This document shows, one piece after another, positions 1 through 57,772 of a stretch of 64,000 nt of DNA. Made by a program: the position numbers and the translations under genes. Every line of letters begins with the position of its first letter. Within the stretch, counting starts at the first letter, position 1. The stretch spans positions 18,972,001-19,036,000 of the forward strand of contig OZ231126.1 in NCBI GenBank assembly GCA_965153355.1, read 5' to 3'. The notes beneath the pieces were generated by a model. That model searched no databases, was not told the DNA's origin, and saw nothing but the letters and a program-made list of their open reading frames with translations. The stretch comes from Flaccisagitta enflata. Its lineage: Eukaryota.

Positions 1-686
1 ATGGAATGCTGTTAATTGAGTCTATTTAGGGACAATAGTACCAAAATTGCAATAATAATCATATCGAATTCAGATTTTTCAGTATTTGTTTATTTTGTCC
101 CTATTAGCCCCAAAAACACAAAAAAAGCGGGGCTAATAGGGACAGAACATATAAATATTGAAAATTTCTAAACCCGGTCTGACTATTAATGTAATTCTGG
201 TACTATTGTCCTTAAATAGACTCTTTCAACAGTATTGCATGAAAAATTATTGATCATATGACCCTTAGCATAGCTTAACATAGTGTCCCGATTAGCCCCG
301 TGTTTTTCAAAAAAATTGATTATTTACATAATTTTAGTTTGTAAACAAACTAGTTCTTTCAAAAAATCCTCATGCATGGACCTCAGAGTTACTAACTTCT
401 TTAAGTTGAAGATACCAAGAGATCACACTGATTATTTCTTCCAGTGATGAGTCAGAGCGGCAATTTTTAGGCTATGTCAATTTTTGATTTTTTCCATATT
501 GTTTGCATTTCAAGTTTAAAGCGATTTAAAACGGTTATAAAACAACATAGACTGCTGTATGTCACCTTGAATTAACTAAATATTGGACAAATGATGATAG
601 AAACAAAAAAAAGTTGACCGGGTTTAAATTATCACATTGAGAACCATTTTTTAGATTGCTGTCCCGATTAGCCCCGTGTGACGGTA
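1..686. mobile_element. Right part of a non-autonomous DNA transposon (MITE-like) in an RPB5 intron
   Basis: 1-240 forms a long imperfect fold-back centred near 120. GTCCCGATTAGCCCCGTGT recurs at ~284 and ~661. The element ends in ...TGACGGTA, a TACCGT-type terminus. Confidence 0.55.
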
Positions 687-18433: not shown

Positions 18434-19677
18434 TAAGGTGGCAGCTGGAAGCTTATCCCAAAACAATTCCCGCCATCAAGGCGTTTTTCGAATTGCCTTC
18501 TCATTCTATAGAAAATGGTCATAAAAGAGTGCTTATCACAGAGAAATTCGCGATTTCTCTACATCGTGGCCGTCATTGTCTTTTTGTCTGTTGAACTGGT
18601 AGTCAACCTAGGGGATATTTTCTCCTAACCTTTCCCTATGGCAGACGGTCCCCCTCAGCTGGTAGAGCCCAAAGCCCCTTCACAGCCCTCACCCTCCTAC
18701 CTCAGAGACTCACCCCAATCCCCAATCACCCGAACCTCCCCATTATCTCCCCCCAAGCTGTGCCCGAATCCTGCGGCAGGCCTACAGCCAATCAGACATC
18801 ACTGCGCCACTAGATAGAGAGGTGGCGGCGCGGTAAGAGAAGATGAGGAAGGGGAAGATATTCCCTCCCCATGGAAGAGCGGAAGAGGATCTGGAGGGGG
18901 TAAGGATGTAGCCTCTGTGGATTTTGACTTCTGAATAGACTCCTACCTTTGCTATCATCTTATTTTTCTCTTCCTTTAAGGGGGGGTGCTGTCCCTCAGG
19001 GAAGGAGGGACAGAAGATTTAGAAGAGGACAGCAGATACAATGCTTGGGCAGATAGAAGTTTAGGCAGGGGAAAGGAACTTCAAGTAGGGTTAAGCCTCA
19101 AGACCCAAGGTGGCCCCCAATTAAACTTAAGCATCGAACCCCCTTTATTTTCTTTTAAACCCCGGGAATTAAATAAATATTTTACTGAAATGAGCGCAAT
19201 GGGCGGGGCTTGAGATAGGAAGGATCTTGTGACTTAGAATCCTCTTTCACTCCTTTTTTCCGCTCCTCTTTCTCTGTTTCTTCTTTCTCGAATCGGATTT
19301 ATCATCGTCGACAAAAGAGACAAAAGGAAAGCTGAGGGAAGCGTTCCGTCTATCTCTATTGGTCCGTCGGTCCTTCGTTTTCTTTTCTCGGCTCTTATTG
19401 CATTTTCGTCCGACGGCTCTCCTGATTTCATCATTTTCTCCCGTAATTTCGTCGTTTCCTTTTCTCCTATATTTTCATCATTTTCTCCAGTTTTTTTCGT
19501 CTCCTTTTCATTTCTAGTCGCGGACACGCGTTTCTACACCCTGCCGTCGGTCGGTCCGTCGGTCGGTCGGTCACATTTCTGAATTGCGAGCGATTTTCGT
19601 ATTACTGCTCCTGCCCAACCATCCGCGACTGGATTGCCGTGTATCCGGCCTTGTTTTTTTCGTATGTTGTCATTTTC

Positions 19678-27370
<7,693 letters not shown>

Positions 27371-27849
27371 CTCTCGAATCGGTTGTAGTCACCAGCAGAG
27401 TTTTGACGGCATTTATAGCTACACCTTATAGCATGGGGAGGGTGGCCTTAGTCGCATGTCACGCAACCCCATGGGCCACTTTTCGATCCGTCAGTCTTTT
27501 CGTCCGGCGGTCGGTCGGTGGCGGGGTCGTTATGGGGGTTTTAAAATAATACTGGGCTGGACATATGCTTGCGTGGGACATCGCCCATACAACTGTTTTC
27601 CCCATCGCTTGTTTCGCCTGCAGCGCGTAGACCCCCCCCACTTCTAACCGGACTCAAATAATCTGCAACCCTGCCTCTCTCTCACTCTCCCTCACTCCGT
27701 CGTTGTCGATGCATAACAGTTAATGATTAAGGGTGGTTGACCGTTGATGTTATTATTAATAATCGAAATAATTGAGTAAGATTGGCCGTTTTCTGTCTAT
27801 CCAAAAATTAAGCCTTTGTTATATTATTTCTATATCACGAAATAATGCT

Positions 27850-29600
<1,751 letters not shown>

Positions 29601-30713
29601 TTTAGAAGGTTTTTTTTCATACGGTGCATTAGTTATTCCTTTTTTTTTCAGACTTTAAGAGTCTCAGTTTTGTAGGCAAACTTGTTTTTTTTAAATATCG
29701 TATTGTTGGCATTGCAGGGGAGAGTTAACAGCAAACAATTTAACAGCAAACAAATTAACGGTCAACGGGGATTAATATGGGTTTTTTAGGTGGGGTCGAT
29801 GATTAATAAATCCAGTGACTGTTGGCATCGATAACGGTCGGCGTTTCCTCTTTAACTCAGCCTCCCCCCACCCCCCCCCCAACTCCCTCGTATATTAACC
29901 TCCCAACCCAGCGAGCTCTCATCCTTATCACGAACCCCGGCAGACCTGAATAGAGGTAACCTACTAGTATTGGCCTCTCGCCTCTTCGGTACTCAGAATA
30001 ACGTCCAACCCCCACCCTCTTTCCTTTTTTTTCCTTACTTTTCACTCTCATCAGAACCCCTCAAAACCTAACGAGGTCGTTAAGTCACCGTTCAACCGAG
30101 ACGAAAAAAGAGCAAAGCGTCAGGAAGTACAAAAGCTTTAAGTACGGGAGGAGGGACAAGGAGGAGTCGAAAAGACATAGCAGATGGGACTCATGAGATC
30201 ATAAAATAAAACTCACACGAGTCCGCGACCTACGAGGACCGCCTTTATTACGAAAGAGACACTAAAATTTTGGCGCATATTAGTGTAGACAGTTTTTTTT
30301 CTTTCTTCTGTTTATAATTCCTTAGAATGCTGGAATAAGGGGAGCATCATTGGCGACGGGCGGTAGAAATACATAGGGAATCTTACGTTTTAGTGGTTAT
30401 CATTTACATTGTCATTGGTTCTACTCTTCCTACATATTTTAAGGAATTGGTAATTTACCTTTTCCGAATTAAATAACCCTAGCCAAAGGAGCCCCTAAGG
30501 AGCCCCCTCCTCCCACTTTTGGGCCCTCAACCTCGTAAGGCGGCCAACAAATTAAGTTTCTCACTTCAGCCAGAGACATCAGCTGACCAATGTCTAGGAG
30601 TCTAGCCAGTTCTACACGTGGATAAGTTTCCCAAACGTGTGAAGAGGGCATACTTAACCGACGTACCCCCATATCCCCTACACAAATTCATCCCCCTTTT
30701 CTTACAGCTGTTA

Positions 30714-30799
<86 letters not shown>

Positions 30800-31184
30800 A
30801 CACACACACTCTCTCTCTCTTAACCCCCCCCCCTCCTCCCTCTTAAGAATAACCAGCCGCATTTGCTGCGGACCTACTTTCGACCCGAACACCCCACCCC
30901 GAAATAAAACCGCTTCGCTGCACGCAGAATTCCTTTCACCGCTTTCACCGTTTTCACTCAAGGATCATCCCTTTTCTTAGGGCAAAAGCCGACAGACGGC
31001 TGTTGACGGGGAGGACAAAGGCAGTAGGAGCGAGGAGCTAGATCAAAGTTTAGGGCCAGACACTTGTCTTAAGTGCCGACATATTACTGATTTTCTCTCT
31101 GTGTCGCAGTCTCTCCGCCTCTTTTCCCCCCATCTTACGCTTTCCTCCTTTACTAACCTCTTTGCCTTTCCTTTCATCTCGCAA

Positions 31185-31254
31185 AACAACATCAACAACA
31201 ACGACAACAACAACAACAACAACAACAACAACCCCGACAACAACAACAACCCCG

Positions 31255-31342
<88 letters not shown>

Positions 31343-31767
31343 CGACCAAACAACGACATTCGAACGAATCAATTTTCGTCTTCATTTTCCCTTTTCTTTT
31401 AGTTCTCTTCTTCTTCTTCTTCTTCTTCTTCTTCTTCTTCTTCTTCTTCTTCTTCTTCTTCTTCTTCTTTTCTTTTCTTCTTCTTCTTCTTCTTCTTCTT
31501 CTTCTTCTTTTTCTTCTTCTCCTTCTTTTCCTTTTTCTTCATCTTTTTTTTTTTCTCCTTTCCTTTTTTTTCTTTCTTCCCTTTTCTTCCTCCGATCAGT
31601 TTCCTCATTTCTTTCACTCCCTTTTATTTCCATACGGTTTTTAATTCCTTTTTCTTCTTCTTCTTCTTCTTCTTCTTCTTCTTCTTCTTCTTCTTCTTCT
31701 TCTTCTTCTTCTTCTTCTTCTTCTTCTTCTTTTTCTTTCCTTTTTCCTTTTTTCGCCGTTTCTTCTT

Positions 31768-31838
<71 letters not shown>

Positions 31839-31850
31839 CTTTCTCTCTCT
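31185..31850. repeat. (AAC)n, (CTT)n and (CT)n microsatellites
   Basis: Seen directly. Confidence 0.95.
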
Positions 31851-31915
31851 CGGAAAGAAGTACAACGGCAACAACCACAACAACATAACAACAACCACAA
31901 CTATAACAAGACAAC

Positions 31916-32173
31916 ATGACGTCTAGTCAGGAGGAAAAGATCGCCAGACTGAATGAAAGGATAAAAGAACTTGAGAAAGAGAACAACAAATTAGCTAGTA
32001 AATATAGGGCCAGCAGAGATAGGACGGCAAAGATAGCCTGGCTCCTGTCTAATATAGTCGCGGTTGCAGAGAGCAGATGGGGAGGATATAAAATGGCTGA
32101 TGGGGAGGCGGCACTTAGTCTTAGAAAGCATTTGAAAGGGATCAGACTAGGAGTAGACCTGTTAACGAAATGA
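31916..32173 (+). CDS. Small coiled-coil hypothetical protein (85 aa)
   Basis: ATG in ACAACATGA context and heptad-like IARLNERIKELEKENNKL. Non-repetitive, and co-oriented with the downstream cassette. The stop region is tandemly duplicated (~49 bp). Confidence 0.45.
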   Translation: MTSSQEEKIARLNERIKELEKENNKLASKYRASRDRTAKIAWLLSNIVAVAESRWGGYKMADGEAALSLRKHLKGIRLGVDLLTK

Positions 32174-33053
32174 AACGACAAATTTAGTGGAAGACTAGGA
32201 GTAGACCCGTTAACGAAATGAAACGACAAATTTAGTGACGCTGCAAGCAACCCTGTGTGGCCGATCGGTCTGGCGGTCGGTCGGTCGGTCGATTCATCTA
32301 GGGGTAAAACGGTCAACCTGCTAACCTGTCCAATAATCATTTGGGTTTTCCTGTCTTGCTCTAAATCATTTTGGGCGCTCCTCCTTTTGGGCTATTCGTA
32401 TCACTTTGGTCTTTAATTTGTTTAAATTTTCCTCACTCGTTTTTTTTTAACACTTCTAAGTTTTGGCTCTAGTAGCGCACTCATGCCGCATCATTCTGAA
32501 TCTCTAGGACACACAAAAAAAAGGAATTACTTACTTGAAAACGCGACTTTAATATCATTTTGATCACCTTAGGCTATATTCTTCCGGACACTGCAAGTCT
32601 ACTCAGGCCTTTTATGTTTTCTTGTTTAGCCTTATTATCTCATGTTATCTGAAGTCTTTCCTTTTCCCTGAGTCTGATTAGTTATCCGGAATAATTTTGG
32701 GCTTTTGTTTTAATTTTAATTTTAATTTTTCTTTTTTCATTTTGCGTGATCTTTAAGTCCTCTCAAATCATTTAAAGTCATTTTAGTCATTCTTTGTCTT
32801 TCTCAATTTTTTCTTGAGTCATTATAAGTTATTCTAAGTCTTTCAAGTCATAGTTTTACCTTCATTGTTTTGTCTTTATTAGCCTTTTGCATACATCATT
32901 TTTGATACCTTTTTTAAGTCGTTTTTTTAGTCATTTTAGTCATTCTTGGTCTTTCTCAATTTGTTTTTTTTAAATCATTATAAGTTATTCTAAGTCTTTA
33001 AAGTCATGGTTTTGCCTTCGTTGCTTGGTCTTTATTAGCATTTTACATCATAA

Positions 33054-33490
33054 TACACTTTTTTATAAGAACATCATTTTCTTTTCGGAGGCTTTATATT
33101 CTTATTTTTTTTTTAGCCAAATGAAGCTTTCAACGTTCTTAGGGTGTTCTTAATCAAAAAAAAAATATACTATAAAACTATGAGGAACTTAATGAATACT
33201 ATTATTTATTGATATCATATATATTTTCTTTTAAATGTTAGTAAAACAAAAGCTAAATATTGAAATCTAAAGATATTTTTATGATATTTAAATTAAGAAT
33301 TATATAATATCTTTTAAATTTTAACAAAATTCAAGTGTTTTTTATAATTTTCCTATAATATTACCTTTCGCGAGAATTCTTTTTTCAAGATTTGAAGCCT
33401 TGGTATGTTCTTAAGATGTTCTTAAATTTGGGGCCATTCAAAGCCTTGATGTTCTTATAAGCTAGGTTCTTATATATAAAAGAAAGTGTA
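33054..33490. mobile_element. TA-flanked MITE
   Basis: TACACTTTTTTATAAGAAC...AAAGTGTA. Confidence 0.75.
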
Positions 33491-35382
33491 CGTCATTTTA
33501 GATCATTTTTAAGCTTTTTTTCAGCAATTTAGTCATTCTAATCTTTCTCAGTTTTTTTAAGTCATTATAAGTTATTCTAAGTCATTCAAGTCATGGTTTT
33601 GCCTTCATTGTTTTGTCTTAACTAGCATTTTTAATTTTGTTATCCTAGGCTCTGCTAAGTTACCCTTTTCAGTCATTCCTTTTAATTTTGTTATCCTAGG
33701 CTCTGCTAAGTTATCCTTTTCAGTCATTCCTTTTAATTTTGTTATCCTGGACTTTGCTAAGTTATTATTTAAAGTAATTCAGGATTCATTGGTGCTTACT
33801 CTATCTGAGTCATTTCTAAGTTTGGTTTCTTGCCACGCATAGTCTGAAACGTTTTTTTTAGTTGTTCATGAACACCCGAAGTCCCTCTAAGTCATTAAAA
33901 GGGTTTTGTTATGCTTCTTGTCTTTTGAGCCATTCTTAGTCTCCATACTTACTAAGTCATCCTATATCAGCTTAGGTCGTTTCAAGTCACTTTCAATCTT
34001 TCCCATACACTTCATGGTCATTTCGTAGTCACGGTTTTTTTTACGGTTTGTCATATCAGGTCATGGTCATTCTTTGCCTTTGAGTCTTCCGTAGTTTAGC
34101 CGTTTCTGAATCGCTTTTAACCAGCCAAATATTTTTAGTTGTGTGCACGCGACTCTACACCTTGCCGTGTAGGTCGTTCGGTCCGTCCGTCGGTCCGTTT
34201 GTCACACTTTTTTTAAAATCATGACCTTTTAAGGTATTTTAGGGTAATTTAAGGTACTCTAGGGTATTTTAGGGTACTTTAAGGCACTTCAGGGTACTTT
34301 GAGGTACTTAAGTTATTTTGGGTACTTAAGGTACTTTAGAGCATTTTCGGATATTTTTGAGTAGTTTTGGGAAGTTTTGAGTAGGTTTGAGCATTTTGGG
34401 TATTTTTGGGTATTCTTGGGTATTTTGGGTATTTTTGGACATATTCAGTGTAGGCAGGGTAGGTATGGTAGGCAGGGTATTTTAATGAGTAGGCAGGTTA
34501 TTTGGTAAATATGTCTGTTATTGTAAAATGGAGCACGCGACTGTTGGCATGTTAGGCGGGTTTTATTCTATAAGTTTACTCAGGGTCTGTCTGAGTTGTT
34601 TTGGACTATGCAGTTTTGAGTTTTGCCCTTTTTGGGTCAATTTGCTATCTCTTGCTTAGAATTCATCATATTTAATTCAAATTGTCTGCTATTACTTGGG
34701 GGTAATTCTTGAATATTTTTAGACACTAGGAATGAGTTGAAGTTGTTACCTTTCTTTTGCAGTCCTGTCTTAATCTTTGAGTCATAAATCACCTTTAATT
34801 TTTTTTAGTTATGCGAAAAAAAAAACCAAGTCATACGACTCTAAATCTTTCTTATTCTCGAAGTCTCTTCGCCACCATTTGGTCACCTGGAAACATTTTA
34901 GGTCACCCCAGATTCCTTTAAGCTTGGTTAGCTAGAGTTAGCCTGGTTAGCTAGAGTTAGCTTGGTTCTGACGTAACAATATGATTACAAACGGAGAAAT
35001 ACTGCGTGTTGTTTGTGGGCAATAATTTCCCAGGGGGGGAATTTGGATGTCCCCATGTAACCCTGATGGTCAGCTGAACCTTGTTGATCGGACTGCAGCG
35101 GGAAGGATTTCAAGCGTCCCTTTCACCGTACCCCTCTAAACCTAACCCACTGTAGGTTACCTAACCAATGAAAGGGGCCAACCACTCCCGTTAAGTACAT
35201 GCCTGTAGGAAGAGTAACAAATGATGATTGGATCTGTTTGGAATACGTGGATTGGGCCTTTCTTTTCTGTTTTTTATATATGACTTTGCCGATGGTGCTT
35301 CCAAAGTAGATTAGCGCTTTTCGCTACAATTATTTTTAGGTGATATCCTTTTCGCAGGGGAATCCGTGTAATCATAGCCGCT

Positions 35383-35685
35383 ATGTCTCAAGAGGTGGAA
35401 TTGGAGACAATTAAAAGATGGTTCCCAAAGGCATTTGTGGAGGGCCGAGAGGTGACCTTTTACACACTAGGATGGCCGCATGTGAAACCATCGGCAAACG
35501 AAATGGCTGACGCAGGGTTTTTCATGTTAAGAAAACCCGATGTCGTCGGCTGTCTCTTTTGTGGAGTTACTCTTGTCGAGTGGGAACAACAAGACGACCC
35601 AAGGCAAGAACACATGCGTTTCTCGCAAAGTTGTCCTGTTTACGGTATAACAAATAGGGGGTCATCGGACAACATCGGGCCCTAG
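35383..35685 (+). CDS. Single-BIR-domain inhibitor-of-apoptosis-like protein (100 aa)
   Basis: R-x2-TF...WP...MADAGFF...DVVGCLFCG..L..WE..DDP..EH......CP is a complete BIR consensus with CCHC Zn ligands. No RING domain. AATAAA at ~35790 and ~35846. Confidence 0.9.
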   Translation: MSQEVELETIKRWFPKAFVEGREVTFYTLGWPHVKPSANEMADAGFFMLRKPDVVGCLFCGVTLVEWEQQDDPRQEHMRFSQSCPVYGITNRGSSDNIGP

Positions 35686-36242: not shown

Positions 36243-36818
36243 ATGGAAGAAGGCGACATTTCCTGCAATGCCAAGAACAAAGGGTTTCGCGTCGAGGGGA
36301 ACAAAGTTCTAAATGATGAGGAAGAGGACGAAGACGAAGTGGGGACGTCTGAATGGATGACTGCGGTGAAGACGCTAGAAGAACGTTGGACGACCGTGCA
36401 AGGAAATGACCTTTTCCCAAGACCTTCATCCAGGGTCTCGACGTACAAGGATGACATCACGGAAACAGCTACCGCCGACGTTGACGCAACGGACGTACGG
36501 AACATCGGGGAACCCTGCGAGTACTGCTGGGCTAACCTGCCTACACAGGAAAGTCTAATGGAGCACTACAGTGTTACCCATGGGAGACATTTCTCCTGTG
36601 CTAGATGCACAAAGGCTTTCAAACGTTTAAGCCACATAGAGACGCACTTAAGATGTGTACATAGTCTAGATAGACCTTTTAAATGTGATATTTGTCTTAG
36701 GGCTTTCAGCGTAAAGAGCAATCTGAAAAGGCATAGAATACTCCACTTTCAGATCGGATCTAGGCACTTCACCACAGAGGGGAAATTTGTGAATAGTGTG
36801 CTAACGTTACACTTATAA
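36243..36818 (+). CDS. C2H2 zinc-finger protein (3 fingers, acidic N-terminus)
   Basis: CEYC..H....H, CARC..F..H....H, linker SLDRPF, CDIC..F..H...H. Probable 5'UTR intron at 36112-36198 (AG|GTAAGT ... polypyrimidine CCCTACAG). Confidence 0.88.
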   Translation: MEEGDISCNAKNKGFRVEGNKVLNDEEEDEDEVGTSEWMTAVKTLEERWTTVQGNDLFPRPSSRVSTYKDDITETATADVDATDVRNIGEPCEYCWANLPTQESLMEHYSVTHGRHFSCARCTKAFKRLSHIETHLRCVHSLDRPFKCDICLRAFSVKSNLKRHRILHFQIGSRHFTTEGKFVNSVLTLHL

Positions 36819-36949: not shown

Positions 36950-37849
36950 ATGTCGAAAATTCTTGCAAAACTGGCCTCCGAGACCTCTTACTCTAAAAAG
37001 TTCATGCAACCGGAATCAACGACCGAAAGGGATTCGAAGCAACTGTGCGATGCCGCTCCAAGGATTGCAGTTACCACCCTACCTCGCCAATACCACTCAG
37101 GAATGGAAGATACTTCGGGAGATCCCTACAAGCAGCAACTCTCCCAAATTGAAAAAGCCATCTCGGAAATCCCTTTGAACATAGAGAGGGCAATTTCTGA
37201 GACGGAGCGCAAAAGGTCAAGGGAGATGGGGGAAGCCCTTCGAGAAATAGGGAAAATCCGGGAAGAAACCATGGCCGCGACTGTCGCAATGGAGGAGAAG
37301 CTCAAGAATGAGGCCCTCGACATCAAAGCGTCATCGGAGGCAGGCTTGGAAGAACTGCAAAGGGAGATGACCAAAGAGTCTAGGTCTCTCCATGAGAACA
37401 ACCTCGCTGCAATGAGGCAAGAAATAAGGAGAGAAGTGGGGGAAAAGTGGTCAAACCTGCAAACGGCGAACAAGAACCATGTCAGATTTCTCAGGGACCG
37501 TGCTGAGAACATGAAAAGGGAGCTGAGGGTCGAAGTGGACAGGGCCGTGAGGGCCAGTCTAACGCGTTTGCCCATGAACCAACAACGCGCGGTAGGAAGA
37601 CAGGCAGCGCCTCAAGGCCCTGTCTTTAGGGCCCCGAGAGGATGGAGGGGACCCGGTCCAAACCAGGTTCTGTGCCAGCAGTGCAAGTATGTTAATTTGC
37701 ATCACAGCACAGAATGCCGCCTACCGCCCTTTTGTGGAATCTGCTGTGTCGAAGGTGCCCACACAGAGGCAGGACACCATCAAGCAATGACCGCTTGGCG
37801 AGGAGCACAAGGCCAGCCATGGCCCCGGAGAGCGGCCAACCGACGTTGA
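36950..37849 (+). CDS. Coiled-coil protein with two C-terminal zinc-knuckle-like motifs (Gag/nucleocapsid- or ORF1-like)
   Basis: Long E/K/R-rich helical region, an R/G/P-rich linker, then CQQC-x5-H-x4-C and CGIC-x5-H-x4-H, and a basic tail. 299 aa. Confidence 0.7.
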   Translation: MSKILAKLASETSYSKKFMQPESTTERDSKQLCDAAPRIAVTTLPRQYHSGMEDTSGDPYKQQLSQIEKAISEIPLNIERAISETERKRSREMGEALREIGKIREETMAATVAMEEKLKNEALDIKASSEAGLEELQREMTKESRSLHENNLAAMRQEIRREVGEKWSNLQTANKNHVRFLRDRAENMKRELRVEVDRAVRASLTRLPMNQQRAVGRQAAPQGPVFRAPRGWRGPGPNQVLCQQCKYVNLHHSTECRLPPFCGICCVEGAHTEAGHHQAMTAWRGAQGQPWPRRAANRR

Positions 37850-38109: not shown

Positions 38110-38975
38110 TTGGCCTTTGCGGGCCTCAATTCATTATACTCCCCTGGCCAATGTGGCATAGACCATCATCTAACATTCAATCAAATTTGGCCTTTGCGGC
38201 ACGTCAATCCATCATATACTTGGCCGTTGTGGCATAGACCATCATCTAACATTCAATCAAATTTGGCCTTTGCGGCAAATCAATCCATCATACACCCTCA
38301 GCCTTTGTGGCATAAACTTTCATCTAACATTCAATCAAATTTGGCCTTTGCGGCGCCTCAATCCAGTATACACCCCTGGCCAATGTGGCATAGACCATCA
38401 TCTAACATTCAATCAAATTTGGCCTTTGCGGCACGTCAATCCATCATATACTTGGCCGTTGTGGCATAGACCATCATCTAACATTCAATCAAATTTGGCC
38501 TTTGCGGCAACTCAATCCATCATACACCCTCTGAGCCTTTGTGGCATGAACTTTCATCTAACATTCAATCAAATTTGGCCTTTGCGGCGCCTCAATCCAT
38601 TATACACCCTTGGCCAATGTGGCATAGACCATCATCTAACATTCAATCAAATCTGGCCTTCGCGGCACCTCGATCCATTATACACACTTGGCCATTGTGG
38701 CATAGACCATCATCTAACATTCAATCAAATCTGGCCTTCGCGGCACCTCGATCCATTATACACACTTGGCCATTGTGGCATAGACCATCATCTAACATTC
38801 AATCAAATTTGGCCTTTGCGGCAACTCAATCCATTATACACCCTTGGCCATTGTGGCATAGACCATCGTCTAACATTCGATCAAATTTGGCCTTTGCGGC
38901 ACCTCAATCCATCATACACCCTCAGCCATTGTGGCATATACATTCATCTAACATTCAATCCTGGCCATTGCGACA
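38110..38975. repeat. ~78-bp tandem array (x~11), two GGCCWTTGYGGC-type motifs per unit
   Basis: TGGCCTT starts at 38188, 38264, 38342, 38420, 38496, 38576, 38654, 38732, 38810 and 38888 (76-80 bp period). Degenerate motif copies extend to ~38078 and ~39110. Confidence 0.95.
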
Positions 38976-39365
38976 ATTCACTTGCGCCGTTGCGGCAATT
39001 CACTCTTCCTCTCAGAATCAACCCTGGCCTCTGCGGCATCACACCCCATCATACACCCTTACTAAATTTTCACTTGAGGATGGGGCTCTCAATCAGTCAG
39101 GGCCCATGGCAGCAACTCAATCATTCGTAAACCATGTGGTTTTTACGGCAACTTGCCTTTCATGTTAGGGACGTTATTCAAACTACTAAACCTCACCACT
39201 AGGACATTTATGACTGGGATGCAACTACAACATTACTAGAGAGTTGCACCAGGAAATTATTACCAATTAGACAACAATTACAAGTTATGCCTTATTTTAC
39301 CGCTATACCTATGACATTTATCAATGCACCTTTTGTCAGGTTCGCTAAACCCTGGATAAGGAGTT

Positions 39366-40754
39366 ATGAGGAGCCTAGTTATGAGGAGCCTGCTTATAGC
39401 AGTGCTGGTGGCTTCCGCGGCCTGCCTTGTCGGCCTTGGCATCACCATCCTTCCGGTGAAGGAAGCAACCAAAGAAGAAGGGGAAGTCTTGAAGGCAGAA
39501 GGCAGACAGAGGAGAGACAATAACGGAAATACAAGAACGGCCTTTGACTGTAGAAATGTCACATATACAAATATGGGCAACGCGGCAAAAGCTTCACGCG
39601 AACTTGTTGAGGACGAAGTCATCATGTGGCAAGGGAACAATTACACCGAATGGAATAAGGCCACGGTGGAGGTCAGTAGCACCATATATGAAGTCTGGTG
39701 TCAACGAGTGAAGGTCGAACTACTTCCGACGGAAAGCTGCTATCACCGCAACTCCCGCAGGGTGGAATTGAAGGGTGAAATTCTTTTCATGGACGAACGC
39801 TATTTCCTTCACGACTTCGCCAGCGAAGTGGACTGCCCGCCCCGAGATCTTCGTGCAAGAATATCTCAGAAGATCCTCACTCACATCCACAAGACACACG
39901 TAATCTCCGACTTAACACAAGCGACACTCTCTAAACCCAAATGCGATTTTTCATCCCTCTTTGACGACAAGTCAATATACAATTTGATATGGAAAAGTGA
40001 AATTTGCCTGTGCAAGAATACAGGTTTCCTCGTGGACCTAAAGATCTACTATCAAAAGTTCTTTGCCCCGCTACTCTTCATAGGAAGTGTCTCTTACTCA
40101 TTCTACTGCTTTATTCTGACCCTGATAGCTCGATACTTCATACGCGTGAGATGGACCTCCGCTCTTCGCCTTTCAATGCCCTTCATAAAAAGAGCGTATG
40201 AAATCATCGTATTCTCCAAGAAAGTATCAAGGAAACTAGACGCCCGCAAACGCCGCAGAGAGAGGAAGCTTGCTTTCTTGGCTCCCGATTTGACGTTGGA
40301 ATGTCTCATGTATGAGCACATGGAGCAACTCTACAGGATTGCGATAGCTTTGAAAGCAAGAATAAGGCGCCTGGAAAAGGGGAGGTCATCTGTCCAGAAC
40401 AGGAGACTGAAACACCGGATTCACCTCATGAGGGAAGTGATAAGGCGCGCTAACGAAAACGGGGCAGGGATAACAGCATCAGCAAAACAACTGACAAGTT
40501 TTGCAAGAAGGCGAGCTGCAGGGAAAACGAATCAAATCTGCCATGGAATGGACCCAAGAACGATTTCTCCTTCAAGATCCACTCAAACAACTGACAGAAT
40601 AACAAATGATGATCTCGGAGGCAGGATTATGTGGACCCATGCCGCTCCAAGACCATGCATTGGTGACCGCGGAAAGACCACGCTGCCAAAATCGAGGTCC
40701 AACACCGGCCCGGTTCCTCCACCAAAACCGAGAAGACACACCAACCTAAACTAA
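39366..40754 (+). CDS. Envelope-like type I membrane glycoprotein with chuvirus/gB-like (class III) motifs, apparently shortened
   Basis: Hydrophobic signal (LLIAVLVASAACLVGLGITIL), furin site RQRR, AFDC, sequons NVT and NYT, motif YEVWCQRVKVELLPTESCY...V...G..LFM...L.....VDC, a TM segment (FFAPLLFIGSVSYSFYCFILTLIA), and a long basic tail ending PVPPPKPRR. Confidence 0.65.
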   Translation: MRSLVMRSLLIAVLVASAACLVGLGITILPVKEATKEEGEVLKAEGRQRRDNNGNTRTAFDCRNVTYTNMGNAAKASRELVEDEVIMWQGNNYTEWNKATVEVSSTIYEVWCQRVKVELLPTESCYHRNSRRVELKGEILFMDERYFLHDFASEVDCPPRDLRARISQKILTHIHKTHVISDLTQATLSKPKCDFSSLFDDKSIYNLIWKSEICLCKNTGFLVDLKIYYQKFFAPLLFIGSVSYSFYCFILTLIARYFIRVRWTSALRLSMPFIKRAYEIIVFSKKVSRKLDARKRRRERKLAFLAPDLTLECLMYEHMEQLYRIAIALKARIRRLEKGRSSVQNRRLKHRIHLMREVIRRANENGAGITASAKQLTSFARRRAAGKTNQICHGMDPRTISPSRSTQTTDRITNDDLGGRIMWTHAAPRPCIGDRGKTTLPKSRSNTGPVPPPKPRRHTNLN

Positions 40755-41106: not shown

Positions 41107-41631
41107 ATGACGGAGCAGCAGGCGCTTACTGGAAAAATGTTGGCAAACATTGTTTCAGGGGTGTTTGACCAAAAAGAGAACTCGAACGTAGAAAGCCCAA
41201 CAGCAAGCTCGACGTCCGTGGGAACCGAATCACCCCAGGAAGGAAACTCTTCTCCTATAAGGGTTGAGGAAGCAGTTGTTGAGGAAGCAGTTAACAAACT
41301 TCGCTTTACAATGATGGCCGTGGAAGAACTAAAGGCCATTGGGAGTGTCCTAACCTTGGTGAATAGGGATAGAAATAGGGATAATACGGATGACAGGGAA
41401 ATCAATCCCCAAGTCCAAAAGGCCATTGACTTGGCCAGCATCAAGCTGAGACGCGAGTGGACGGAAAAACTCAGGGTTCTACGTCGAGAAATGGAGAAGG
41501 GATGGGAAAGAAAGATAATGGAAAACAACACTGAATTGAGAAGGAGAATCGGCGAGGAGATAAGGGCCAAAATGCGCAGGAACATCGGAGATCACAACCG
41601 ACCATCAAAATCGCGACGTTCCGAACTTTGA
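41107..41631 (+). CDS. Hypothetical coiled-coil protein (174 aa)
   Basis: Clean non-repetitive ORF with an S/T/E-rich N-terminus and a charged helical C-terminus, co-oriented within the cassette. Confidence 0.6.
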   Translation: MTEQQALTGKMLANIVSGVFDQKENSNVESPTASSTSVGTESPQEGNSSPIRVEEAVVEEAVNKLRFTMMAVEELKAIGSVLTLVNRDRNRDNTDDREINPQVQKAIDLASIKLRREWTEKLRVLRREMEKGWERKIMENNTELRRRIGEEIRAKMRRNIGDHNRPSKSRRSEL

Positions 41632-41915: not shown

Positions 41916-42762
41916 ATGGAACCTCTTCTTGAGCCTAACCCGCAACGCTTTGTTGTACTGCCCACACTCTATCCTGAGATGTGGGATATGTACAAGAAGG
42001 CAGTAGCCAGCTTCTGGACCACTGAAGACGTTGACCTTGCCAAGGATATGGAGCACTGGGAAAATTTGAAGGAGGGAGAGCGCCAGTTCATATCCCATGT
42101 GCTTGCCTTCTTTGCTGCCAGCGATGGGATCGTCAATGAGAACCTGGCCCAAAGGTTTCTTGTCGATGTCCAGGTACCCGAAGCCAGGTGTTTCTACGGT
42201 TTCCAAATCGCCATGGAGAACATCCACTCGGAGATGTATGGTCTCTTGATTGAAACATACATAAGAGACCCAGCCGAAAAGTCCCGCCTCCTCAATGCCA
42301 TTGAAACCCTGCCTGCAGTTAAACGAAGAGCAGACTGGGCCATCTCATGGATTCACGATGAGACCAGGAGTTTTGCCGAGCGGCTGGTCGCTTTTGCGGC
42401 TGTTGAAGGCATTTTCTTTTCAGGGAGTTTTGCAGCCATCTTCTGGCTCAAGAAGAAGGGAGTCATGCCTGGTCTATGTTTCAGCAATGAATTAATCTCC
42501 AGGGATGAGGGCCTCCACTGCGACTTTGCATGCCTCTTGTTCAGGTATGTCCAGGACAAACCAAGCGAAGGGACCGTCAAGGAGATTATCGCTCAGGCGG
42601 TGAGCATCGAGCAGGAATTCCTATCTGACGCTTTACCAGTGGCTCTACTCGGGATGAATTGCCGTTCCATGAGCGACTACATTGAGTTTGTCGCAGACCA
42701 CTGGCTGGGCCAGCTGGGATTTGAGCCTCTCTTCGGAACTCAAAATCCTTTCGACTTCATGA
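41916..42762 (+). CDS. RRM2: Ribonucleotide reductase small subunit (class Ia R2), intronless, viral-style short N-terminus; 3' end cut by the assembly gap
   Basis: [40 protein letters not shown] (Fe ligands and radical Tyr), [23 protein letters not shown]. The symbol denotes family membership, not host orthology. Confidence 0.95.
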
Positions 42763-42772
42763 NNNNNNNNNN
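42763..42772. other. Assembly gap (10 N)
   Basis: N run. Sequence character changes abruptly across it. Confidence 1.
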
Positions 42773-55009: not shown

Positions 55010-57772
55010 ATGATTTTGGTGCTTTGCAAATTAGCGATCATCTTGGTGGTTTTATGCACCTCCACGAATTTCGGTGCCTTTTCTCACTGGGGTAATTTGA
55101 AAAATATCATAACGTGTCAAAGCCTGATAACTGGGTTAGGGAAATGAGATTAGGAATATTATACCTATCAGAATCATGATGGTTATTAAATAACAAAATA
55201 GAATAACTGGGGGCATTGTACTTTGTCGCATGCGATAGGGCAAAGGCGGAAATAGGCGTTTTAATAGTTCTCAATTCGAACGATCGACGGATAAACAGAG
55301 GGAGGGACAGACAGACAAACGGATAGATTGAGGGACAGACAGACAAACGGACATATCGGAAGATGGACGGACGGACAGGTGGATAGACAAAGTTTCCCGT
55401 AGAGTCAATCAGTACACAACTTAAAACAAAATAATTTTGATGTTTTTTCTGAAAGAAACTACGTCGCGTTGGCCTCAGCATCTGTTCAAAATACCAAATG
55501 TTTTTTCTTGTCTTTTTTATTTTTTATCTATTTTTTTTTGTGTGTGCTCGTTTTCTTTTTTACAGATAGGTACAAACAAGCAAAGGATGGGAACTTTTAT
55601 AGTTTTCACACAACTGCGAAGAATTGGACTGATGCAAGATCTATCTGTAAACAAGAGAGGAAAGGCGCAAGATTAGCCATCATTGATAACGCAATCTCGT
55701 TTCAAGCTATTAATGATTCTGAATTCATCAATTTCAACAGCAGCGATCCGTGAGTAAAAAAAAAAACGGACAAATTTTGAGAGAGCAAAAACATATGAAG
55801 ATGTTGACCAATTTACATAAAATTTACAGTGAATAATAACCATGATTTAGACTATGTGTGGTTCGAATTTCATCAAAATCCGTTGAATACTTCAGCCGTT
55901 ATCACGTTTTTACTGAAGTCACCTCTTTTTTTGACTGCCAGAGATGACATTTATCCATCATCAAAATAATTCCATTTTTAGTAAAATTGACATTATGCAA
56001 AAAGTATTGGGAGTTTTGTTATGAATTTTGAACTGTAGTCTGATGGTGTTATTTACTAATACTAGGCAAAATTTGGGGTAGATATTGGTTGATTGTAAGC
56101 TTGCTCAAGATAAAAAATATTTAGCCACCTGTAAAAATATTTTTGCACTTTGGGGATCTAAAAATGCTTTAATCTTTACCAAAATTTTACTGGAGATGAA
56201 CCATGTGTACAAAAGTTACCAGTTTAAAAATTATGACAATTGGTTAAAGACTATGGCTATAGCATCGATTTATATTTTGGATTTCGTCTTCATTTACTTC
56301 ATTCTTAAAACCATAAAAAAAAGTTTAGGAAAACTTGCTGTTTCTGCTAAAATAATTGGAGTTTCGTATTAAAATTTTTACCACAGCCTGCTAACAATAT
56401 GGTCCACTTCCACTTCAAATTTCATCAAAATCGGACTAGATTTAGTATGTTTTTTTAAAGTTTGTTTATTCTCTTTTTGTATATTCGTATGTGTGCAGAT
56501 TGAATTTCTGATCATCTGACAAGCACTTTTAAAAAATCTATTATTCTCAAACTATTTGGAGCAGGTCATTGATTTTTTCAGTGATGCTTAATGATACTAA
56601 AAGGTAACTTCAGTAAAAATTTCAGCACACTGGGTGAATTTTCAAAGGATTTATGAGCAAAAGAAGTAACTGTCCGTTTTTTTTTTTTGTCATTGTTACA
56701 AGTGCACAGAATGGATAAATTTGTACATCGGTCTCAATGCCAAAATCAGATCAATACCATCAAATAACCATGGCAAAGAAAAAAAAGACAGTTATTTCAA
56801 TTCATTCCTACGCCCTCATTTTATTGATCTGCTCAAAATCCTTTTAATTAGTTACAGTATATCAAATTACCTACTCAGCAAAAAAATCAGAACTCAAGAA
56901 TGTTGATTTTTGAGCCCGTGGCATCACTTTTTCAGAAAAAACATCTGGCAAAAAAGAGAGGAAAAAAGCTCCATCTTTAAAACTTTCTGAAATTCATTTT
57001 GACAACTATTACAAAAAATGATACTATGGGCGCAAAAATCAACTTTTATGAGTTCTGATCTTTTTGCTGAGTAGGAAATTCGACATACTATGAACACTTA
57101 AAAAGATTTGTGGCCATTTAAAAACAAATAAGCGCGCAGTAACAATTGTAAGTCAAGTAAGAATATTAATCAGTGGGAAAATCATTATCTGACTAATTAT
57201 CTGACTAATTTGTTTTGCCATAGTTAGAGTCAAACCACGTCATAAATGCTGTAGTTGTATAGAGTGTCTATAGGGGAAATTTCTCTTATCTCCAACAATC
57301 AATTCAATACTACTACACCATTGATGGCGTAGTGCCTAGATCAAGTCCAAATCAATTTTCCAAAGAGATTTAGCTCCTAATATGCAAAAGGAACATGAAA
57401 AGTGCTTGGAAATAGTGTTTCATTTGAATGCCCAAATTTAGCCCACTCTAGTGTGGAAGCGTATAGTTGTTGTGCACTTTGAGCGTGTAAAAGAAATGTA
57501 CAATTGATCATCCCGTCTCTTTTTAAGCCTTTGGCTGGGAGCATCCGACCAAGACAGTGAAGGGACATGGTACTGGATCGATGAAAAGGACGCAAAACAC
57601 AATGCATCTTATATGCAATGGAAAAAAATCGGAAAAAATAAACAACCAGATGGCGGAAAAAGCCAAAATTGTCTTTTGCTCAAAAGGAGTGACTCCACAA
57701 ATGTTTGGTTTCACGATGGCAAATGCGAGAGTTCAACTTCAAGGAAATGCTTGTGTCAACGCCTGCAAAAAA
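55010..57772 (+). CDS. Secreted C-type lectin domain protein (QPD type), multi-exon
   Basis: Phase-consistent exons 55010-55091 (signal peptide), 55566-55749 (FYSFH..KNWTDARSIC...GARLAII) and 57528-57772 (LWLGASDQDSEGTWYWID...QPDGG..QNCL...FHDGKC...CLCQ). Candidate phase-compatible 3' exons 58683-58773 and 58872-59013 are weaker. Confidence 0.88.

Follow-up and report, generated by a model that had tools for sequence, protein, structure and literature searches.

A short envelope-like protein, apparently derived from class III glycoproteins, in large Ty3/gypsy-type elements of Flaccisagitta enflata

A stretch of 64,000 nucleotides from the arrow worm Flaccisagitta enflata (contig OZ231126.1, positions 18,972,001 to 19,036,000), in the following called the window and numbered from its first letter, contains on its forward strand at 39366..40754 a frame of 462 aa without internal stop, which encodes an envelope-like protein carried by a long terminal repeat (LTR) retroelement. 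This protein, the mini env, is very probably an element-borne and selected membrane protein that was derived from a class III viral glycoprotein and lacks the fusion apparatus. Profile comparisons and structural models support its descent from a chuvirus-type class III glycoprotein (G) whose fusion-loop part would have been lost, and relatives in the same genome and in other sequence collections indicate that the shortening is old and family-wide and not an event in the window copy.

Architecture, family and kinship of the mini env

As judged from hydropathy, the signal peptide, ectodomain, single transmembrane (TM) segment and cytoplasmic tail of the class III glycoprotein layout are all present. 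An earlier note, made from the letters of this DNA alone, had proposed an internally deleted class III-like glycoprotein, and the motifs it listed were all located in the open reading frame (ORF): a signal peptide, RQRR, AFDC (aa 59-62), a cysteine block (Cys112, Cys125 and Cys157), an F..L....IY motif (FSSLFDDKSIY, aa 195-205), a TM segment and a basic tail. The intact ORF, the distance of about 50 aa between AFDC and the cysteine block and the ectodomain of about 180 aa were likewise borne out, as Cys62 and Cys112 are spaced by 50 residues and about 183 aa follow RQRR in the ectodomain. No hydrophobic stretch was detected in these 183 aa, the highest KD19 value being 0.51. The tail of 204 aa contains 47 K+R versus 15 D+E residues and displays PPKPRR at aa 452-457. 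An AlphaFold2 (AF2) model of the protein reached a pLDDT of 93.4 and a pTM of 0.65, and the crown domain folded alone a pLDDT of 92.9; in both models a single helix of 6 residues precedes the crown block and the long central helix of domain III is absent.

In the full-length G encoded by the same genome, the same two cysteines are about 386 codons apart, in line with the several hundred residues that had been expected at this place in full-length relatives. About 335 residues are missing between the first two cysteines of the mini env, corresponding to domain I with its hydrophobic fusion loops, domain II (both of pleckstrin homology (PH) fold) and most of the domain III helix. Among the 399 and 110 frames of a 60-kb and an 18.6-kb element, none was found that could supply domains I and II separately (best E 1.0), and in both elements the env is the only sense-strand ORF of at least 150 aa with a signal peptide and a TM segment. 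Glycoprotein gB has its fusion loops in domain I; during fusion, domains I and II must swing about the coiled coil of domain III, against which domain V packs (PMC7935361). As the fusion loops are absent, fusion of the class III type would be impossible for the mini env, which would resemble a relic envelope in its working but lacks two defining features of class III fusogens.

Searching the genome with the ORF gave 14 matches with 24-100% identity, of which nine contain open frames of 408-464 aa, and two more members were obtained via the Pfam family PF24664. A profile search among 1.84 billion representatives returned 74 clusters at E<=1e-3, and a family alignment of 63 rows was built from 56 of these clusters, those omitted being mostly short fragments, together with seven genomic rows. 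In every one of the 52 rows in which the four core cysteines are retained, Cys1 and Cys2 are 48-95 residues apart, so that the deletion is common to other copies and not a lone allele, the outcome on which the earlier note had made its proposal depend. The 55 rows of sufficient length fall into 36 clusters at 40% identity and 12 at 30% identity. The distance from the last cysteine to the TM segment has a median of 83 residues in the family versus 120 in the local full-length G. Two details of the window protein turned out to be less general: a furin-like site such as RQRR (aa 47-50) occurs in only 13 of 46 rows, and the PxxPxR-type motif noted at the end of the tail, although present as PPKPRR, was found in 8 of 51 tails (mean of 2.2 and maximum of 7 in 200 shuffles), six of the eight being own-genome copies or near-copies. 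The best-kept non-cysteine residues are His318 (modal fraction 0.89) and Tyr323 (0.94) in a helix of the tail, and the first 60 aa of the 51 tails carry a median net charge of +6. Five relatives (P0012, P0013, P0009, P0020 and P0054) possess an Ig-like domain between signal peptide and crown; the family tree, a quick and unrooted one of 55 of the 63 rows, does not distinguish one gain of this domain from several. Other relatives show low-complexity N-terminal extensions of up to 380 aa. When relatives sharing sequence words with P0062 were collected over the range of 306-977 aa, 12 proteins of 363-573 aa were obtained and none had the size of a full-length G; a search for longer forms of the family spanned 1258-3590 aa only and is little informative.

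Kinship to chuvirus-type class III glycoproteins was evaluated by four partly independent tests. Firstly, 14 of the 63 members match PF24664 at E<=0.01, at profile positions of about 360-440 of 653, and 3 of 29 relatives pass the curated cut-off of this family over about 70 of the 653 positions. Two matches to PF24664 (L070 and L072) were discarded as low-complexity false positives. Secondly, hhalign aligned the family with the genome's own full-length G over 74 columns (P=87.2%, E=3.8e-6, ORF residues 86-161, 16% identity), and hmmsearch against the full-length G scored 28 bits, the highest of 500 shuffles scoring 5.4. Thirdly, all 12 matches of the AF2 model at E<=1e-3 in a Foldseek search of BFVD are of glycoprotein size (best E 1.3e-6), with low global TM-scores; ten of these top 12 are named glycoproteins of chu-, qin-, mi- or related viruses and two are unnamed. 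Fourthly, the crown was folded separately, as structural comparison by VIA with a 295-aa model was swamped by helical coiled coils, and the crown model was compared with 48,161 chains. Herpes simplex virus (HSV) gB ranks first, with 97 of 110 residues aligned, a root-mean-square deviation (rmsd) of 4.6 and a Z of 4.1; domain IV of pseudorabies virus (PRV) gB obtained a Z of 3.9, and no VIA row other than these two spans about 90% of the crown model. The matched range of the HSV gB chain, 111..638, is discontinuous and so fits the deletion model. The claimed kinship with class III and chuvirus-type proteins and the loss of the fusion-loop domain thus held up in the Foldseek, hhalign, PF24664 and gB domain IV comparisons.

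Several observations weigh against this interpretation. The Z of 4.1 is weak and within the range of common folds, the window protein itself does not match PF24664, and its Atlas score is only 0.87. No PDB entry was matched at E<=1e-3, either by sequence or by Foldseek: sequence searches with two alignments gave 0 matches and 16 weak ones at E>=0.15, and HSV gB came first in Foldseek at E=0.082, with the long model only. Homology covers about 75 residues only, the stem, TM segment and tail being assigned by position, and the AFDC strand showed no significant alignment with the N-terminal piece of the local G (P=0.5%). Some of these points, namely the low Z and the lack of a direct PDB match or of an informative Pfam match for the window protein alone, would also suit an unrelated cysteine-rich beta domain that came to resemble domain IV by convergence. 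However, profile, Foldseek and Pfam evidence converge on the same 70-80 residues of the same family, and the discontinuous gB range is what a deletion predicts, so that convergence is regarded as very unlikely. Similarly little credit is given to the idea that the mini env is a primitive crown-plus-stem membrane protein that predates the insertion of the PH domains and not a reduced fusogen. The deep diversity of the family, with its 12 clusters at 30% identity among 55 rows, and the lack of intermediate lengths would agree with such an origin, but the nearest relatives of the family are a single subgroup, the chuvirus-like G, as would be expected if it descended from them.

At C1:108.95-109.16 Mb (L063-L068) the genome contains three copies of the full-length type of chuvirus-like G, each split into an N-terminal and a main frame. 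Two of the three adjoin a gene with an RRM domain, and in the 20 kb fetched around two copies no reverse transcriptase (RT) of the clade linked to the mini env was detected.

Carrier elements and selection on the env gene

Gene order and the nearest solved RTs, those of cauliflower mosaic virus (CaMV; E 4e-11) and Ty3 (E 2e-9), indicate that the carriers are divergent LTR elements of the Ty3/gypsy type, with sizes of 7-60 kb. The RT motif reads YADN or YVDN in these elements. Paired LTRs, target-site duplications and sites resembling a primer-binding site and a polypurine tract also agree with this type. A BEL/Pao-type carrier, the kind of element mentioned in the earlier note, was not recovered, as no Pao-specific Pfam families were found in the linked gag and pol frames. 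TG...CA ends are usual, but not universal, for LTR retrotransposons of the Ty3/gypsy group; in all four elements with defined ends (C9, C3, C9:28.47 Mb and C8), LTRs end with C...G instead, and all are flanked by 5-bp duplications.

When 13 env regions were extended, a same-strand RT of one clade was found 9-26 kb from the env in eight of them, and four of the 13 lie between LTR pairs of 98.8-100% identity with 5-bp duplications, in elements of 60.3, 21.2, 18.6 and 6.8 kb. The position of env varies: some elements have it 5' of gag and others 3' of pol, and its distance from pol reaches 26 kb. Two results count against a tight linkage: no RT was found near five of the 13 env regions within the stretches fetched, and env and RT similarities are weakly correlated (rho 0.48, p 0.07, with 15 non-independent pairs). 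The 6.8-kb element at C9:28471140-28477971 has identical LTRs and keeps a mini env without any RT, the structure of a non-autonomous form. A related env-bearing region at C4:6.49-6.53 Mb contains ORFs with SPRY, FHA, TRAF/MATH, RING and ribonucleotide reductase domains, and another (L050, L093) contains F-box ORFs, so that cargo of the ubiquitin pathway recurs.

In the subfamily formed by the C3 and C2 copies, all three pairs gave synonymous distances (dS) of 0.17-0.25 and nonsynonymous distances (dN) of 0.02-0.03, corresponding to dN/dS ratios of 0.11-0.12, which suggests that env has been kept by purifying selection in this one subfamily. In all six distant pairs synonymous sites are saturated, with protein identities of 33-48%. 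The dN/dS check that had been proposed gave a divided answer, for the three near-identical copies of the window type, which differ at 5-15 sites, have a ratio near 1. This ratio speaks against selection at face value; it is as expected for changes after insertion and is uninformative. It is also what a decaying pseudogene or a lone deletion allele would display, an explanation that is largely refuted by the short spacing in 52 of 52 rows, the ratio of about 0.12 in the other subfamily and the long open frames in nine of 14 genomic matches. In the roughly 6% of one RNA run (X4) that was covered, no reads aligned, a sample that does not bear on expression.

The window copy and its sister copies

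The features of the window copy are compiled in Table 1. From position 18634 to the assembly gap at 42763, it is colinear with copies on C7 and C9, with 98.5-98.7% identity over the final 10.6 kb, and its gag-pol region and 3' LTR are lacking because of the assembly gap only; no element sequence was found past the gap or in the following 10 kb.

Table 1. Features of the carrier element and of the mini env, with positions in the window.
Feature	Position	Strand	Basis or remark
5' LTR, 477 bp, ends CC...GG instead of TG...CA	18634..19110	+	3 mismatches versus 3' LTR of C9 sister; left boundary common to three copies
Primer-binding-site-like TGGCCCCC directly 3' of LTR	19111..19118	+	Identical 8 bases after LTR in C9, C1:104.4 Mb and C3 elements
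Long microsatellite-rich, mostly non-coding 5' region	19119..35300	+	Colinear at 83-99% with C7 and C9 copies
Accessory ORF, BIR (inhibitor of apoptosis) domain	35383..35685	+	PF00653, E=2.6e-17
Accessory ORF, C2H2 zinc fingers	36243..36818	+	PF00096, E=1.8e-10
Accessory ORF, coiled coil and Cys/His knuckles, gag-like by eye	36950..37849	+	No Pfam match below E 0.01
78-bp tandem array 5' of env	38110..38997	+	Repeat family D14; found in C7 and C9 copies too
Mini env ORF, probably class III-derived, type I membrane topology	39366..40754	+	ORF list, hydropathy, AF2 model, Foldseek, hhalign
Predicted signal peptide or signal anchor, aa 6-29	39381..39452	+	Hydropathy, KD19 peak 2.56
RQRR furin-like site, aa 47-50, confined to part of family	39504..39515	+	Sequence motif
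Predicted crown domain (gB domain IV-like): AFDC strand, short linker replacing domains I-III, Cys112/125/157 block	39540..39845	+	AF2, VIA, hhalign
Helical stem, putative domain V / membrane-proximal region by position	39846..40070	+	Helices in AF2 model
Predicted TM helix, aa 236-254	40071..40127	+	Hydropathy, KD19 peak 1.98
Cytoplasmic tail: amphipathic and basic helices, conserved His318/Tyr323/Arg332/Glu337 helix, variable end with PPKPRR	40140..40751	+	Modal fractions, model helices
Accessory ORF, coiled-coil-like, no family	41107..41631	+	ORF list, Pfam scan
Intronless ribonucleotide reductase small subunit, truncated by assembly gap	41916..42762	+	PF00268, E=1.5e-110; frame unbroken in C7 and C9 copies
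10-N assembly gap	42763..42772	.	Gag-pol and 3' LTR of window copy not within window

The C9 sister copy (C9:59296849-59357193) measures 60,345 bp from LTR to LTR, its 477-bp LTRs differ by 1 mismatch, it is flanked by a 5-bp target duplication and TGG follows its 5' LTR. In the sister copies the ribonucleotide reductase gene is followed by gag, protease, RT, RNase H and integrase, and the order protease-RT-RNase H-integrase was observed in the C7 and C9 copies as well as in the C3 element. Besides gag-pol, the cargo of the C9 copy consists of a BIR protein, two C2H2 ORFs, the ribonucleotide reductase small subunit, a RING protein, an ORF resembling SGNH hydrolases by eye (without Pfam match) and three or four related orphan ORFs of 210-410 aa. 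In the same copy (L018:5402-7862), 2.46 kb of the gag region are swapped for unrelated sequence of near-equal length. The env ORF of the window copy begins with a tandem duplication of 15 bp (window 39366-39395), which is present in neither the C7 nor the C9 copy.

The C7 copy (C7:15944513-16020771) contains an internal duplication of about 20 kb and ends at element position 55,937, and the final 4.4 kb of the element are located at C9:60615759-60620198 with an identical 5-bp flank; both parts appear to belong to a single copy that was broken up by a rearrangement or in the assembly. A 26.8-kb internally deleted element at C1:104386284-104413074 belongs to a related subfamily (77% LTR identity) and has the same set of 3' ORFs, and as this diverged subfamily shares the set, the large size would not be due to recent nested insertions. 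The size of about 60 kb is thus supported by sequence comparison with the C7 copy, whose remainder lies on another contig with the same flank, and with a diverged subfamily carrying the same 3' genes.

Outside the element, two seemingly intronless host genes at 810-2175, named by eye, resemble an RPB5-like RNA polymerase subunit and a COMM-domain protein, and intron-bearing kelch and C-type lectin genes are located elsewhere in the window.

Possible functions and comparison with known systems

The explanation that accounts best for the data overall, and which we hold to be somewhat better than an even bet, is that the mini env assists budding and attachment without being fusogenic. The env-like gene of this clade of Ty3/gypsy-type elements very probably arose from a chuvirus-type class III glycoprotein that lost about 335 internal residues long ago. 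As class III proteins are nested, a single cut would bring the N-terminal crown strand together with the remaining crown and leave a folded domain IV, which would remain standing on stem, TM segment and tail. The protein might then serve as a membrane scaffold whose conserved tail helix collects capsids at the membrane for budding or for hand-over from cell to cell, while the exposed crown, plus the added Ig domain in some members, might bind the cell surface. The scaffold part of this proposal is suggested by the fact that His318 and Tyr323 are the best-kept residues apart from cysteines, that no other sense-strand ORF of at least 150 aa with signal peptide and TM segment occurs in the two elements scanned and that five relatives have an Ig-like domain; conserved tail and N-terminal Ig domains together would favour a scaffold or an attachment role. 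Truncated glycoprotein stems that aid budding and non-fusogenic relic envelopes of other viruses are analogous cases, which our literature searches did not retrieve.

A different role would be that of a decoy or superinfection-exclusion factor, which would take up the receptor used by full-length class III envelopes or inactivate the trimers that these form, to the benefit of the host cell in which the element resides. The same genome also encodes full-length class III G, crown and stem are retained, and in mosquitoes solo chuvirus glycoproteins have been suggested to block receptors (PMC7642597). However, the gene moves within mobile elements with their own LTRs and does not occupy a fixed host locus, its similarity to the local full-length G is distant, with 16% identity over 74 columns, and the strongly conserved cytoplasmic helix would be left unexplained, which makes this role unlikely. 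We consider it improbable, too, that the mini env is an active fusogen like the fusion-associated small transmembrane (FAST) proteins or sORF2, whose TM segment, amphipathic helix and basic tail would drive cell-cell fusion or protrusions through which capsids pass directly. The basic, amphipathic juxtamembrane tail would suit such a function, as would the lack of any other membrane protein in the elements scanned, and envelope-less LTR elements are transferred from cell to cell via a small TM protein (bioRxiv 10.1101/2025.03.14.642691). Its folded, disulfide-type ectodomain of about 180 aa without a hydrophobic patch argues against it, since the ectodomains of FAST proteins are very small, far below this size. 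In a broader form, elements of up to 60 kb might spread between cells via an envelope of class III origin that, without fusion loops, has a new way to merge or bridge membranes; this is doubtful, but if true, it would combine the longest type of LTR retroelement that we found described with a new mode of entry for which crown, stem and tail of a class III fusogen are used.

Class III fusogens are described as five-domain machines, and a selected family without domains I, II and most of III would constitute a natural deletion experiment that isolates the roles of crown, stem and tail from fusion. The small size of the protein makes the role of env in invertebrate retroelements testable, and the length of 60 kb raises the question of how such an RNA is packaged and reverse transcribed. 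Our literature searches, which did not reach supplements or subscription papers, retrieved neither a class III env family devoid of domains I and II nor an LTR element near 60 kb.

Among known systems, the G of chuviruses and other Monjiviricetes (PF24664) shares with the mini env the xDC N-terminal motif, the cysteine block of the crown, the TM segment and type I topology, whereas the mini env has about 335 residues fewer between Cys1 and Cys2 and about 40 fewer between last cysteine and TM segment, and possesses a long conserved tail. Chuvirus G within BEL/Pao elements is known (PMC7642597; bioRxiv 2022.06.22.497255), and Anakin is a case in which an LTR element captured a chuvirus-type G (PMC7642597); in contrast to Anakin, the carrier described here has no Pao-specific Pfam domain, its RT is nearest, among solved structures, to those of CaMV and Ty3, and its G is reduced. 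The HSV/gB-type ENV of errantiviruses is likewise a class III-related env present in several copies in LTR elements of the Ty3/gypsy type, where it is widespread and has domains I-V and fusion loops (PMC13524379). The mini env differs from it by the lack of domains I and II and by its location on either side of pol, as far as 26 kb away. As the errantivirus survey kept regions of at most 10 kb and discarded ENV with large truncations (PMC13524379), the mini env family would be missed by it, and standard env surveys filter out such elements by length and truncation.

Domain IV of herpesvirus gB (2gum, 5ys2) shares the discontinuous crown fold over 97 of 110 residues, with a Z of only 3.9-4.1 and an rmsd of 4.4-4.6, and differs in being part of a protein that has domains I, II and III in full. 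The sORF2/FAST proteins of MDG1-group elements resemble the mini env as TM proteins of an LTR element that have a basic tail and no classical fusion apparatus (bioRxiv 2025.03.14.642691), but the mini env is of unrelated origin and has a much larger folded ectodomain. With regard to the carrier, the giant gypsy elements of planarians named Burro, of more than 30 kb, also contain BIR, RING and MATH/TRAF accessory domains and an env region, but encode one huge polyprotein and an F-like env (PMC6431247). The C9 copy, with 60.3 kb, separate ORFs, a ribonucleotide reductase gene, C...G LTR ends and a mini env of probable class III origin, differs from Burro in each of these respects, and an LTR element of 60 kb with ribonucleotide reductase, BIR and RING genes has about twice the length given for Burro in a 2019 review (PMC6431247).
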